Under the pieces are notes generated by a model. That model did no database searches. It was not told the origin of the DNA and saw only the letters and a program-made list of their open reading frames with translations. A program made the position numbers and the translations under genes. A stretch of DNA of 63,204 nt, counting the filler, from Collodictyon triciliatum (lineage: Eukaryota): the NCBI GenBank assembly GCA_043381765.1. It is 4 parts of 4 records of this genome, joined end to end, with 100 filler letters (N's around TTAATTAATTAA, not from the genome) between each part and the next. Parts side by side here need not be neighbours in the genome. Positions count along the whole stretch, not along the records: positions 17,269 to 34,439 come from JBHJMP010001481.1; 3 more parts are not named here. The stretch is one strand, 5' to 3'. Shown here piece after piece: positions 21,716 to 30,290 of the stretch; the first letter of the stretch is position 1, and every line of letters starts with the position of its first letter.

Positions 21716-24700
21716 TTAATCGTCCTCAATTACGTCGTCGTCATCGTCATCATCTGGGAGATATTCTTCGGTACCGCTTTCCTCACTTTCGCTTTCATTT
21801 TCACCCTCGGTAGCCTCACCTTCATCTGGTTCCACAATTTGCACCGCTGTACGCATTTCTTCGATAGCAGGTACATTTAATGCAGTCTCTCTAATAATGA
21901 TAAGCTTAAGTCAGACAAGCAACGTGCATGAATATCACATTTTACCCTGGTCTACCCAAGAGTAAAAATATTGATACCGCTGTTTTGCTTATACTATATC
22001 ATGGCTGTGCCTATTTTTGGTGTATCATTGAAATTTTGTGGTGGGAGATTACCTCCAGTCAAGCACTTCATCGCGAACAGGAATCTAGGAATATATCATT
22101 ATTGAGGGGAAGTAGAAAGGAAAATAAATATCTTCATAAAGACAGACCTGAATCTGGATTGAGTGGTGTGGAATTATTGCATTTGAAGGAGCGTCAGAAA
22201 CAGGCACTTGAATATCATCTTTTGGCAACAATTTATGCATCTTGCTATGACTTTTGTCGTTCGAGGAGGTGGATACTCTATTATCTCCATTCAAACTAAT
22301 GTCGTCAAGGGTGCTGGACAAGCGCCTCGGAACTTCAGATCCGCTCCGAGTTGAATAAGTCAGGTAGTTAGGGGTAACAAAAAAATCTTCAACAGGAGGC
22401 ACCACCTCCAAAACAAATCCTGACGGGACAGGATTGTAAAGCTTACCCAGATGCATGCTTATTATTGCAGATGGGAATGCAACTGCCTGTAAAGAGGTAT
22501 TGCGTTTAAATAGCATTTATATCATTGTTGAGTTCAGAGGGTCTGCTGCTTGATAGTTATCTCTAGTGTGGCGAAATAGAATTATTACAATTGAACCCAA
22601 GATTCCAGCGAGTGTTGCGATAGCTTTGCCTGTGAACGTTTTTGGCACCATATCCCCTTATTCAGTAACAAAATTTAAAGGTTATTCTGATCAGGCGTAT
22701 TGGGATGAAGTAGAACATAAAAGAATTACCATAACCCACTGTAGACATCGTCACTAAAGCCCACCAAAGCGAAACAAAGACACTTTGAAAAGGGCTATTG
22801 AAAGTAATCAGCCGCATTAAAAAAAACCCCCCAAAAACCCCAAAACCCCAAAAAACACAAAAAAAACACAAAAAAACACAAGAAATATGTATAGATGACT
22901 GAAAGAATATAATAGGACGAAAAAAGTTGTGGGATTAAATATTACTTAATTTACCTTTCAGAATCATCTGAATATACCCAGCGCCCATTTCTCCAAACTC
23001 CTCTCTCAGCATGCCAAATGAGAAACGCAAAGAAGAATGAGAGAATCCCAATGAACAAGGTGATTACTATGAATATGACCACACATTTTCGTAAAGTCCT
23101 CACAGATGCCTGGGCAAGTCAAAAAAAAGTGTCAAAATTTTAAAGAAATATTATTATTCAAAGAGATATTACATCGTAATAATCTCGAAACTTTGATGGC
23201 GGCAGCAACTCAAACAGGTAGAAAAATACGACAAGCCGAACCACCACCATGACATGGTAATCCTAAAAAAGGACAGAAACTTGTCTCAAATAAGGTGGTA
23301 ATAGAGAAAGAGACGCTAAAAAACTATCATATGCCATCATGGAATCGAGGTAGAATGATTACATGGTCCACGAATATTGCAAAGAGATAAAATATCAATC
23401 CAAAAGCATCTGCCAGCTCATATGCCGCTAAAAAAAAATTAAAGTGGTTAGATAATTGGATGAATCTTCACACTTAACTGTATAATATATGTATACTTCC
23501 GAGCAAAACCTCCCAAGGTTTAAGGTAAACGCGTACAATAAGACTGGAAACATTGATTCCCATAAGGAATGATTGCGCATAGAGCCTACATTTAAAATTG
23601 GAAGTTTACTAAAACACATAAGGAAGAACTAAGGTGAGGTGCCAATATATTTAAATTTATTACATCTTTATTTGCGTCGCCTCTTCTTGCGAGTAATATA
23701 CGCTCGAAAAAATCGCCAATAGAGCGGATGCAATTGAAGTCAGCATAGCAGATAAATGAAGTGACAGAGTCTGTCATCGCATCACAAGATTTTAACAATA
23801 GTCTTTTTTTAAAAAATTTAGAATAAATGCGCGTATGTGTGGTATTATCACCTCTATATTATATAGGTGATAATACGACAGTATGTTAGACGTTTACCCA
23901 TCCATTCATAAGTGGCTGGAAGATTCGATACAGAAGTTTTTCTTTTTCGGAGAAGTTTTTTATTTCCCCCGACTAATTATATAAATTTTTTTGTTTAATA
24001 ATCAAAAAAATCCATGCATTTTCAAAGTCAATAAAAATGTAATATGTAATTTATAATATTTGGTTGTGTAGGAAAGAGTCATCTGTTTGGTTGATTGGAA
24101 AATGCAATTACATGATTTCCCAGCGCAATATGAGGTCTTTCGTCGTCTATTTTATTAATATTTTCTATTTCGAGCATTTTTGTCGAAAATGATGCTGTGA
24201 TGATAGAAATAGGGAGCGATGCGGTCTATAAATATTGAAATATGTTTTGAAAATATTGAAACGTCAAGAAATTCCTATGACATGGTTATATTCAAAAGTA
24301 AAATCACCAAAAGACCAGCCATGGCCGCGCATCCTGAGATAGTTTTTCCAGCCCAAGAAAGATGAAACGAGTTCCCTGATAGTCATGTTGATATTGCAAA
24401 TAAAATAAAATACAAAAAGATGCTCATTCGATTAATAATTGCCATTAGATAATGTTTCTTGTGAAATTGCAGTTATAACGATGTAATTATCAAAATGAAG
24501 ATAAAAAGGACTAAATTTCTTAAAAAGATATCATTAAAAATTACAATATTGAGGCTTAAAAATGAGTTGATGAGCGCACAATTACCATATCCAATTGTCA
24601 AAGATGTGATAATCATAAACCAGAAAGCTTCTGGAACACTTTTTATAGTAGGGTCGCTATTATATGTAATTAGGATTTCAAGCCATTATTTCTGTCTGGG

Positions 24701-27700: not shown

Positions 27701-30290
27701 TGTTTGTTTGTTTGTTTGTTTGTTTGTTTGTTTGTTTGTTTGTTTGTTTGTTTGTTTGTTTGTTTGTTTGTTTGTTTGTTTGTTTGTTTGTTTGTTTTTT
27801 GAACATTTAATCATTTTCAACATTTATGCAACGCTTCAAATACAATATAGCTCTACAATTACATAATGTATGATCCCTGAATCAACGATAAAGCTGTACC
27901 AGCGCATACTTCTCATAATCTAGTGGGAAGTATAATTAGAATTACACCAGGGATATCTCCATGCGAAAAAGGTAAACATACACATACCTTTCGAGATTTT
28001 GAAACCAGTCTAGTGAGAGTTCCGTCGCGATTGTCAACTTCGTCCTCTTCTTTCGGTGGAAAGATCCCCCTTCCCATGCTTTTCCAAATGGAACTGTCAC
28101 GTTTGAACTGATGAGGAACTTTTGGAGCTGTGAACCGATGTTTGGACAGTTTCTTCGCGTTTTCATTCCATTTTTGCAATCTATTTCTGCTCAATTCTTC
28201 TCCCTGTAAATCCATTCCGATAAGAGCAAAATGCGGTTGGTTATATCGAAACAGTAAAACTTGTCTTGTGTCTTTCGAGGGGCTTCAAAAGTATAGAGCA
28301 TAAAATTTTTCTATTTTATTAAAAATGGAGGCGAAGTTCAATTTAAACAGACCCCTTTTTCGTGGAGGCGAATGTCCCACTCTTGCTGAAAGTGAGTGCT
28401 TATCACAGCAATAGCTAGTCCAGTGAGCTATGTATGATGGCAGGGGCATTATAATTCAAGAAAAAGGCGATTAAATATCAACACATTATGAGATGTTACG
28501 ATGAATCCTGCAACGATAGTCAGGGAACCAACAGCACGTCCCAGAATAGAAGAAGGGAATAAATCGCCTATGAATCAGTTATTTGATCGTTTGATAGTTT
28601 TGTTTTTGTTTTTGTTTTTGATTTTGTTTTTTTTACAAAAATATCCTGAAATAGCACAAAATTTTCATAAAGGTTTTTGTGCTTCGCATGAAGATTACAA
28701 ACCAAATCCAACAGTTGTGATGGTCACCATACACCACCAGTATGATGATATGATGGATTGGAAGGTGCTTTTCAGTGGTATTAAATGTATAGTTTAGCCT
28801 TATCGGTACTAATGATTAAATATATTGGTATGATGATTTCCATTCATCTTGTAGCATGCATAGCGCACAAAAACCATCTGAAAAAGAGATAAATAATAGT
28901 TTAAAATCCAATAGAAAATAATTTAAATTAAACTCGCCGTCAAAATATCTGAGCATACCTAGGAATACCATTTTTCATCCAAACCCTGTGCTCAGCATTC
29001 CAGTCCCCTCTTTCGATGAAAAACATGGCTGTTGACAAAATAGACACAAAAACGAATAGATATAGGAACATCACAACTAATATTCTCGATGAATTTTGAT
29101 AGGTCTTGACGAGGGCCTATTGATGCAGCAATTTAATTTTTGTTTTTTAAGACTAAACCCCCATCTTTATCATGCAACAGTCGCCTTTATCATTGAATTG
29201 AAAAATACAGTGTATGCCAGCCATTCACTACGAAAACTTAATACGCGAAGGCCTTGAACCAGACGAAAAGCTCTCAGAAAACTCAGGTCGGTGGAATTCT
29301 ATGTTTTGAATCAGTAATGGTAAATGAATTAGCCTCTTGTTATGACTAGTGAGTGAATTTTGTTTTGGTCAAATAATGTGATACCATGGTAAAAATTCCG
29401 ATGTAGAACGAAATCAAGCACACCAGGTCGATGCAGTTGAGAAAATCTAAAGATTAATTGTATTAAGCGTGTAAAAAGTGTTTTACGGCGTCAATCTGAT
29501 TATTCTTTTGGTGACATACGATTACATGAGCAATTATTACTACAAAAATCTGTACTTGAAAAGAATTCTTTCCACGAAATCAGGATAATGCGGACGATTA
29601 GGTCAATAGTGAAGATAATAAGCAAGGCAGCCTCGAGTCTCGGCCTGGATTCCATTTTCAACAGATAATGACTTCAAAGAAAAAAAACAGAACTAGAAAA
29701 TTGGTCAATTATTAATTAAAAGTACAGATTCAGTATACCATCTAACTCCATTATCAGCATAGTACTCCGGGTATGAAGAGGCAATTAGAGTAATCAATGA
29801 AGTCATAACTACTACCATGTATAAAAGGTCCCACACAATCACCTTATTACAATACAAATATCGACACATCAGAGAGAAATACTACATGGGGCGAGGAAGA
29901 AGTAATCCAGGATTTGGAAATAGAATAAAATAAAATGTAATAAATAAGCCAGCTTACTAATTTCGCTCTTATCCTGGATGGTAATTTGTCGATTGCAATC
30001 ATAGCAAACTTGATGTGGTTTATGCAAGGTGTCTGCAATAGCTTTTTAACACTCCTAGTTATGCTCTTTTTCTCTACCTTCTCCTCCAAATGACTTGTTG
30101 CTGCTAATTCTGCTGTTCCTTGGTGTTCCTCGATAATATCAACAGGGGAACCAGTCACAGCTCCATCAGGCGAACCAAACGAGTTTCTGGGACTTGGGTT
30201 ATAGAAATCCTTTCGGGAGCGAAACTTTGAGAGAGTGCCCAAAGACGAAGGTCGTTCATAATCGGAGAATCTTGGGCGGGTTGAATCCAT
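21716..30290 (-). CDS. Four-repeat (4x6TM) voltage-gated-type potassium channel, ~40 exons, ~1,400 aa
   Basis: ATG 30290. Four S1-S6 units with S1 exons starting at 29842, 27687, 25615 and 23770. Pores: SYWWCMVTITTVGFGDLFP (~28710), SLWFTIAMLTTVGYGDIVP (~26505), AFWFMIITSLTIGYGNSFH (~24590), SLWWALVTMSTVGYGDMVP (~22735). In-frame GT-AG linker exons join the repeats. Acidic tail ends DDDDVIEDD* (TAA 21716-21718). Confidence 0.85.
27700..27796. repeat. (TTTG)n microsatellite in a K+ channel intron (complementary unit (CAAA)n at 14134-14226)
   Basis: Directly visible. Confidence 0.95.

Follow-up and report, generated by a model that had tools for sequence, protein, structure and literature searches.

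Can a Shaker-like potassium channel be encoded as a single chain of four repeats? Voltage-gated potassium (Kv) channels are the standard example of a channel assembled from four separate subunits, and to our knowledge the step from a tetramer to an asymmetric four-domain chain is usually discussed for Cav and Nav channels only. The question is raised by a locus in a 63,204-nucleotide (nt) stretch of DNA from the eukaryote Collodictyon triciliatum (assembly GCA_043381765.1), referred to as the window, in which a sequence-only reading had placed a natural single-chain Kv-type channel with four domains and 24 transmembrane (TM) segments. A gene runs from 30290 to 21716 on the minus strand at this locus. 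It has 38 exons and a 4089-nt coding sequence for 1362 amino acids (aa) with no internal stop, and it is a real, intact gene. Its product is most likely one 24-TM chain, and for the splice between repeats I and II this conclusion draws on sequence and homology. We lean towards the view that the gene is a member of an old and as yet undescribed family of Shaker-like K+ channels with four repeats in a single chain and with neither a cyclic-nucleotide-binding domain (CNBD) nor a T1 domain. The four-repeat state of this family would be independent of Cav/Nav and of CNGK and would predate the split from Diphylleia, a protist of the group CRuMs. The repeats would since have specialised, with S4 charge mainly in I and III and with repeat-specific turrets and filters.

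Four potassium-channel repeats on one strand

Four S1-S6 units, each with a K+ signature, had been read on one strand, and the profile matches and the filters both bear this out. A hidden Markov model (HMM) of the six-transmembrane (6TM) unit, built from relatives, matches the spliced model four times at HMM positions 16-265 of 271, with independent E-values (i-E-values) of 7e-68, 9e-60, 7e-45 and 8e-49 for repeats I to IV. All four repeats have S1-S6 with a P-loop between S5 and S6, the mark of a voltage-gated-like 6TM channel. The K+ signature T-x-G-[YF]-G is present in every pore unit, as TTVGFG (~28709), TTVGYG (~26505), LTIGYG (~24592) and STVGYG (~22736), all on the minus strand and ~2 kb apart. 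Each filter closes a short exon; a phase-1 GT intron comes after it, and the exon downstream begins with D, D, N and D, respectively. These filter sequences suggest a K+-selective pore. Pfam scans took in three pore exons, that of repeat I being left out, and all three open reading frames (ORFs) matched Ion_trans_2 and Ion_trans, with two exceeding the curated cut-off. The N-terminal ORF (29850-30347) matched no Pfam family at E<=1, and the scan of the I-II linker ORF and the C-terminal ORFs gave nothing meaningful.

The basic residues of S4, as read from alignments, are distributed unequally. They are regularly spaced in repeat I (R-R-x-R, about four) and in repeat III (R-R-K) and reduced in repeat II (essentially one R, 1-2) and repeat IV (one R). 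For comparison, repeat I of P0155, a related protein described below, has five regularly spaced S4 basic residues. The S4 exon of repeat II is 9 nt shorter than the other S4 exons. Since the charge is unequal among the repeats, gating is probably driven by a subset of them or is only weakly voltage dependent.

The gene model keeps its frame throughout. Splice-site score ranking alone was ambiguous for choosing junctions, and a purpose-written spliced aligner was used instead, which threaded a profile of five related proteins through a 9.4-kb region. Where the aligner was not reliable, in the outermost exons at either end and in the linkers, its choices were replaced by curation. All 37 introns of the resulting model are GT-AG, with lengths of 63-300 nt and donors that are mostly GTA. 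The ATG at 30290 and the TAA at 21718-21716, which the sequence-only reading had given as the limits, are recovered exactly. The joins it had quoted are present as frame-keeping GT-AG introns, both between repeats II and III (SIIG/RNVLV, RTLK/KRAAD and KITAI/EKAVK, with the slash marking the splice) and between III and IV (LGNH/SGEIK and MNGW/TLSLH). An alternative path of the aligner between II and III omits the 48-nt linker exon and is still in frame. In the model the N-terminus measures ~109 aa, the inter-repeat linkers 67, 39 and 33 aa, and the tail ~157 aa.

Relatives in a second protist and the order of the repeats

The four pore exons were made into a HMMER profile, which had 4136 matches at E<=0.001 in a set of 1.84 billion representative proteins. 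Multi-repeat K+ channels stand on top; among the best 150 matches, four proteins have four matched stretches and six have three. The top matches are P0001 (1748 aa), P0006 (1493 aa, ENA) and four EukProt transcriptome clusters of Diphylleia rotans. The longest members of these clusters, P0162 (1439 aa), P0153 (1169 aa), P0155 (1148 aa) and P0156 (1160 aa), are all Met-initiated. For the P0162 gene, the source gives isoform i1 the label 'type:complet...'. In Pfam scans each of the four shows four Ion_trans and four Ion_trans_2 stretches and nothing else notable, and P0001 and P0006 have the same four-plus-four pattern. Neither cNMP_binding nor BTB_2 appeared in the Pfam scans of 12 relatives, among which P0163 has two repeats. 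The four Diphylleia proteins are thus like the window gene in having four Ion_trans domains, GYG-type filters, short linkers and no CNBD or T1. They are unannotated, and no discussion of them in print was found.

P0162 and the window gene are collinear, their repeats I to IV matching in order, and 32.2% identical over 1287 aligned positions; the paralogs P0153, P0155 and P0156 are 25-28% identical to the window gene. The window gene and P0162 also have repeat-specific details in common. The turret of repeat II holds two cysteines (ERG-YHNG-FC), repeat III has lost the ERG turret motif and reads LTIGYG and LPISIIT, the S4 of repeat IV is poor in charge, and the C-terminal end is acidic, with an S/D/E tail in P0162. 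The window gene differs from P0162 in its GFG in repeat I and in the smaller number of S4 charges in its repeat II.

The profile search of the 1.84 billion representatives brought up no protein with 50% or more identity to the window gene. Word-indexed homology searches returned 34 candidates for the I-II linker exon and 1970 for a four-S5-exon profile, and none of these scored. A search of the same kind with a five-protein family profile gave 12 proteins at E<=1e-10 among 8000 scored candidates, with no new four-repeat member. The family is not unique to this genome, as unannotated members are already in public transcriptomes.

Two maximum-likelihood domain trees place the individual repeats. 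The first has 55 rows, namely 32 repeats from eight multi-repeat proteins and 23 single-repeat matches, selected as having a single filter motif and being 380-700 aa long. The second has 70 rows and adds two-repeat sequences, CNBD-bearing sequences and one four-domain cation channel sequence; a duplicate row was removed, and P0168 was left out for want of a usable domain. In tree 2 the repeats of the window gene pair as sisters with the P0162 repeats of the same number, with support of 99, 96, 99 and 99 for I to IV in the Shimodaira-Hasegawa-like approximate likelihood ratio test (SH-aLRT). The corresponding pairs in tree 1 have 99 for I, 100 for III and 98 for IV. All five repeat-IV rows form one clade (support 99), and in tree 2 a 22-row clade (support 97) unites 18 of the 20 family repeats with the four repeats of P0001. 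The same-numbered pairing indicates that the four-repeat order is older than the divergence of the window gene from P0162. An order of that age is the principal argument that the four units of the window are one gene. The claim of a single chain is further supported by P0162 itself, a single Met-initiated transcript ORF with four repeats that is collinear with the window gene and orthologous to it repeat by repeat. P0006 behaves differently: its four repeats group together (support 100), which points to a separate origin of its four-repeat state.

Other multi-pore proteins turned up beside this family. Many of the best 150 profile matches have two K+ pores ~300-370 aa apart (P0012, P0013/P0174, P0014, P0176, P0163), and the named sources of such proteins are transcriptomes of Rigifila ramosa, Namystynia karyoxenos, Entosiphon sulcatum and Lotharella globosa. 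Some of them may be fragments of longer chains. The sampled two-repeat proteins P0014, P0163, P0174 and P0176 lie outside the 22-row clade of tree 2 that holds most of the family. P0128 (2542 aa, NCBI) has four pores ~660-780 aa apart, a Myb match and no cNMP_binding match, and its repeats pair I with III and II with IV in the first tree. It appears to be of separate origin from the window family. An identity with CNGK was considered for P0128 and is left undecided, as the I/III and II/IV pairing fits it and the cNMP_binding match is lacking.

A common exon plan and the age of the duplications

All four repeats follow one eight-exon plan (22589-29842 in the window) with entry phases 0,2,1,0,0,2,1,0. 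For repeats I/II/III/IV the exon lengths are 104/110/104/107 nt for S1, 89/92/92/89 nt for S2, 62/65/68/65 nt for S3, 90/81/90/90 nt for S4, 158/167/131/155 nt for S5, 65/65/71/65 nt for the pore and 68/68/68/68 nt for S6a. The S6b exon is variable, with 75 nt in I, 28 nt in II, 114 nt in III, where it reaches into the III-IV linker, and 339 nt in IV, where it reaches into the tail. In an alignment of the repeats the introns share columns or stand in neighbouring ones; the sole apparent exception is the intron before the pore exon of repeat III, which adjoins an alignment gap. The repeats are mutually 20-28% identical as proteins. This low identity on a common intron plan indicates that the duplicated unit already bore introns and that the duplications are old.

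Four similar eight-exon units of ~2 kb each, head-to-tail, could also be four separate, tandemly duplicated Kv-like genes, whose 'linkers' would be untranslated or terminal exons. Retention of any intron after S6b does lead to a nearby stop. Their mutual identity of 20-28% is not that of a young gene array, and each repeat is closer (32-35%) to the same-numbered repeat of the single-ORF relative P0162. Every inter-repeat join is in frame through GT-AG introns, and only 33-67 aa lie between repeats, with gaps of intron size (63-300 nt) that leave no room for promoters or untranslated regions. Residues 625-753 of the gene model hold no Met, and repeat III would therefore lack a start codon of its own. 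On this evidence four genes are an extremely improbable arrangement, and the single gene is retained.

It is also very unlikely that the open frame is the remnant of a decaying or unexpressed copy. Depleted S4 charges in repeats II and IV and a repeat III turret without its ERG motif are what decay might leave behind. Against this, the 1362 codons spread over 38 exons are free of stops, where each random codon would be a stop with a probability of 0.067. Every splice site is intact, and the four G-[YF]-G filters, pore helices and S6 motifs are kept. The LTIGYG and turret of repeat III and the S4 peculiarities of repeat IV are common to the window gene and P0162, and such repeat-specific features are therefore old and conserved rather than signs of decay in an intact gene.

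The junction between repeats I and II

The 149-nt phase-0 GT-AG intron previously proposed between repeats I and II (28352-28204) is present as described, with 28353 as the last exon base, 28203 as the next and HEKG/GEELS as the join. The TGA at 28340-28338 and the ATG at 28215-28213 also lie where they had been placed. They allow an alternative in which repeat I is a stand-alone 6TM protein ending at this TGA and a second mRNA, starting at this ATG, codes for repeats II-IV. The two proteins would then assemble together, or repeat I would make a homotetramer. If the intron is retained, the frame does end at the TGA after five codons, and the ATG lies inside the intron, in the context GGAATGG, 12 nt before the linker exon. 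The donor GTCTGT is the only GTC donor among the 37 introns. The same donor has an alternative in-frame acceptor at 28107, besides that at 28203.

Splicing is favoured by four lines of evidence. The ORF of P0162 reads through the homologous point, with ...HEW... followed by a basic linker. The acceptor TTTACAG/G, the phase match and the length of 149 nt are typical of the introns of the gene. The linker exon lies within a 123-codon stop-free ORF (28284-27916), for which the chance probability at the base composition of the window is ~2e-4. A three-repeat chain cannot by itself close a four-fold pore, as follows from established channel architecture. In addition, window repeat I is sister to repeat I of P0162 with a support of 99, which also speaks against two separate mRNAs. 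We regard this split arrangement as unlikely and the continuous four-repeat chain as the better account. The case for the II-III junction, where repeat III has no start codon of its own, is stronger than that for I-II.

Family affinity and fold

The Shaker-like character that had been read from the pore and S6 motifs agrees with the profile searches. The window's own pore profile, compared with solved structures, scores Shaker best (1.1e-10), followed by KvAP, Kv2.1, Kv1.3, Kv1.2 and Kv4. The best PDB sequence matches of P0162 are Shaker, Kv3.1, Kv4.2, Kv2.1 and Kv1.x, at 2e-29 to 4e-20. The best 60 PDB matches listed for P0162 are K+ channels throughout, with Shaker/Kv1-4 ahead of KCNQ and no Cav or Nav among them. 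The absence of CNBD and T1, also claimed in the sequence-only reading, is upheld by the 12 Pfam-scanned relatives, by the N-terminal ORF and by linkers too short at 33-67 aa. Independence from CNBD channels agrees with tree 2, where the CNBD-bearing channels form a separate clade (support 100).

An AlphaFold2 model of P0155, made from a five-sequence alignment, has a mean predicted local distance difference test (pLDDT) score of 68.2 and a predicted template modelling (pTM) score of 0.67. Its transmembrane blocks reach a pLDDT of 70-84 and its linkers stay below 50. In a Foldseek search with this model, all of the top 50 matches are single-chain Cav, Nav and NALCN channels, to which the model aligns over its whole length with template modelling scores (TM-scores) of 0.59-0.66 and 12-16% identity.

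Several points weigh against reading the locus as one K+-selective, voltage-gated-like chain. Besides the stop, the start codon and the donor at the I-II junction, in-frame alternatives exist for the linker junctions and for the C-terminal junction (22148 to 21904). The reduced S4 charges and the unusual filter residues (GFG in I; Leu before TIGYG and Asn after it in III) make both selectivity and voltage gating less certain. In tree 1 the pairing of window repeat II with repeat II of P0162 has no starred support, and in tree 2 the repeat I pair of the two proteins falls just outside the 22-row clade on a long branch. The fold model is that of P0155, a paralogous relative 27% identical to the gene model, and is of middling confidence.

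Comparison with known channels

CNGK, or tetraKCNG, is the sperm cGMP-gated K+ channel of Bonigk 2009 and Fechner 2015, as described in the portions of PMC6259924 and PMC7576140 that were available. Among K+ channels it is named as the 4x6TM representative in the accessible portion of a 2018 review, which gives each repeat a CNBD (PMC6259924). The window chain, as far as orthology indicates, resembles CNGK in that one chain holds four 6TM repeats with K+ filters. CNGK differs, according to those accounts, in carrying a C-linker and CNBD after every repeat, whereas the window linkers measure 33-67 aa and the relatives have no cNMP_binding match. It also belongs to the cluster of CNBD channels, and its repeats pair I with III and II with IV (PMC7576140, excerpted text), unlike those of the window gene, where no such pairing is resolved.

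Pozdnyakov et al. 2020 describe two-repeat tandem Kv-like and CNBD channels 'for the first time', and the consulted text gives four-repeat forms only for CNGK (PMC7576140). These tandem Kv-like channels are similar to the window gene in having, as reported there, diverged CNBD-less Kv-like repeats of unequal S4 charge in one chain. They have two repeats and are presumed dimers, as opposed to the four repeats of the window gene. Cav, Nav and NALCN channels are likewise 24-TM single chains with asymmetric repeats, and the P0155 model superposes on Cav1.2, Nav1.7 and NALCN. In contrast to their E/D/K rings the window filters are GYG-type; identity is 12-16% for the P0155 model, and there is no sequence affinity. 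True Shakers are defined by T1 and 'Shaker-like' denotes T1-less cores in the part of a 2024 paper that treats these terms (PMC11287247). The window gene has in common with them the S1-S6 core, the canonical K+ filter and best matches to Shaker/Kv1-4; it differs in having no T1 and in placing four cores on a single chain, where those channels have one core in each subunit.

The window gene is accordingly outside CNGK (it has no CNBD), true Shaker (no T1), Cav/Nav (GYG filters) and the two-repeat tandem class (four repeats). By its predicted protein it belongs with the T1-less Shaker-like Kv class, in the sense given to that class in the cited part of PMC11287247. A four-repeat Kv-like channel without CNBD was not found described in the open-access literature, papers citing PMC7576140 included, although supplementary tables might contain one. 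The suggestion of an undescribed family holds in that no published description was found there; it does not hold in the sense of proteins new to the databases, which already contain unannotated members.

Proposed mechanism and its meaning

The locus would be one gene for a pseudo-tetrameric, K+-selective Shaker-like channel, a 1362-aa chain of four non-identical 6TM repeats. Each repeat would supply one voltage-sensor-like S1-S4 bundle and a quarter of the central pore (S5, P-helix and S6), and TVGFG, TVGYG, TIGYG and TVGYG would jointly form a canonical K+ selectivity filter. Such a protein may work like a Kv pore set in a Cav/Nav-style chain. The divergence of the repeats from each other would follow from their covalent linkage. 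At this locus we infer splicing, especially at I-II, as well as K+ selectivity, fold and gating.

A natural concatenated Kv-like channel with differing S4, turret and filter sequences would make the step from tetramer to chain testable in a K+ channel. One could then ask which of the repeats are voltage sensors, what behaviour an asymmetric GYG filter has and whether the order of linkage matters. The published Kv-like series of one repeat and two-repeat tandems is extended to four repeats, a type of protein that databases hold only as unnamed transcript ORFs. If the interpretation is correct, the family represents a second natural experiment in which concatenation makes a tetrameric channel asymmetric, and the common intron plan records the duplication of an intron-bearing 6TM unit.

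Features of the gene model

The features of the gene are collected in Table 1.

Table 1. Coordinates of the four-repeat channel gene in the window (splice sites marked by a slash)
Feature	Position	Strand	Basis or remark
Whole gene model	21716..30290	-	profile-guided spliced alignment, then curation
Start ATG	30290-30288	-	same limit as in the sequence-only reading
Exon 1, cytoplasmic N-terminus, 111 aa, no recognisable domain	29958..30290	-	donor TTA/GTAAGC to acceptor 29842, phase 0
Repeat I, 8 exons (S1, S2, S3, S4, S5, pore, S6a, S6b), filter TTVGFGD	28353..29842	-	HMM, residues 110-350
Repeat I, S4 exon	29298-29209	-	
Repeat I, S6b exon	28427-28353	-	75 nt
I-II intron, 149 nt, phase 0	28204..28352	-	donor GGG/GTCTGT, acceptor TTTACAG/G
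I-II linker exon, 72 aa, charged	27988..28203	-	strong donor AAG/GTATGT
Repeat II, 8 exons, filter TTVGYGD	26186..27687	-	HMM, residues 418-661
Repeat II, S4 exon	27072-26992	-	
Repeat II, S6b micro-exon	26213-26186	-	reads AVALPVSIIG
II-III linker, two exons (26006-25882 and 25792-25745)	25745..26006	-	both without Met
Repeat III, 8 exons, filter LTIGYGN	24112..25615	-	HMM, residues 701-934; S6b exon extends into III-IV linker
Repeat III, S4 exon	25037-24948	-	
III-IV linker exon, 25 aa	23898..23972	-	CAT/GTAATT...TTAG/T and TGG/GTAAAC...ACAG/A, both phase 0
Repeat IV, 8 exons, filter STVGYGD	22148..23770	-	HMM, residues 968-1205
Repeat IV, S4 exon	23262-23173	-	
Repeat IV, last exon, extends into C-terminal tail	22486-22148	-	donor 22148, least certain junction of the model
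Last exon, acidic C-terminal tail	21716..21904	-	run of D/E, then TAA
Stop TAA	21718-21716	-	same limit as in the sequence-only reading

A long (CAAA)n microsatellite, which reads as TNKQ repeats, lies in an intron of repeat II at 27700-27810.

The rest of the window

The window is AT-rich (~35% GC), intron-rich eukaryotic DNA with 1414 N. None of the other ORFs listed here suggests a functional link to the channel. A 417-codon ORF at 56486-57739 has no Pfam match. Other ORF pieces, all on the minus strand, match a PHO80-type Cyclin (53670-54419, 6e-18) and LRR_8/LRR_4 (46977-47537), with weak matches to GST_N (48384-48854), Kelch (7189-7755) and Ankyrin (3169-3588). The N runs at the filler positions 17169-17268, 34440-34539 and 51709-51808 each consist of a pair of 44 N with 12 bases between them. 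CT/GA and other short-unit arrays occur at 13400-14330, 45250-45770 and 7730-8160.

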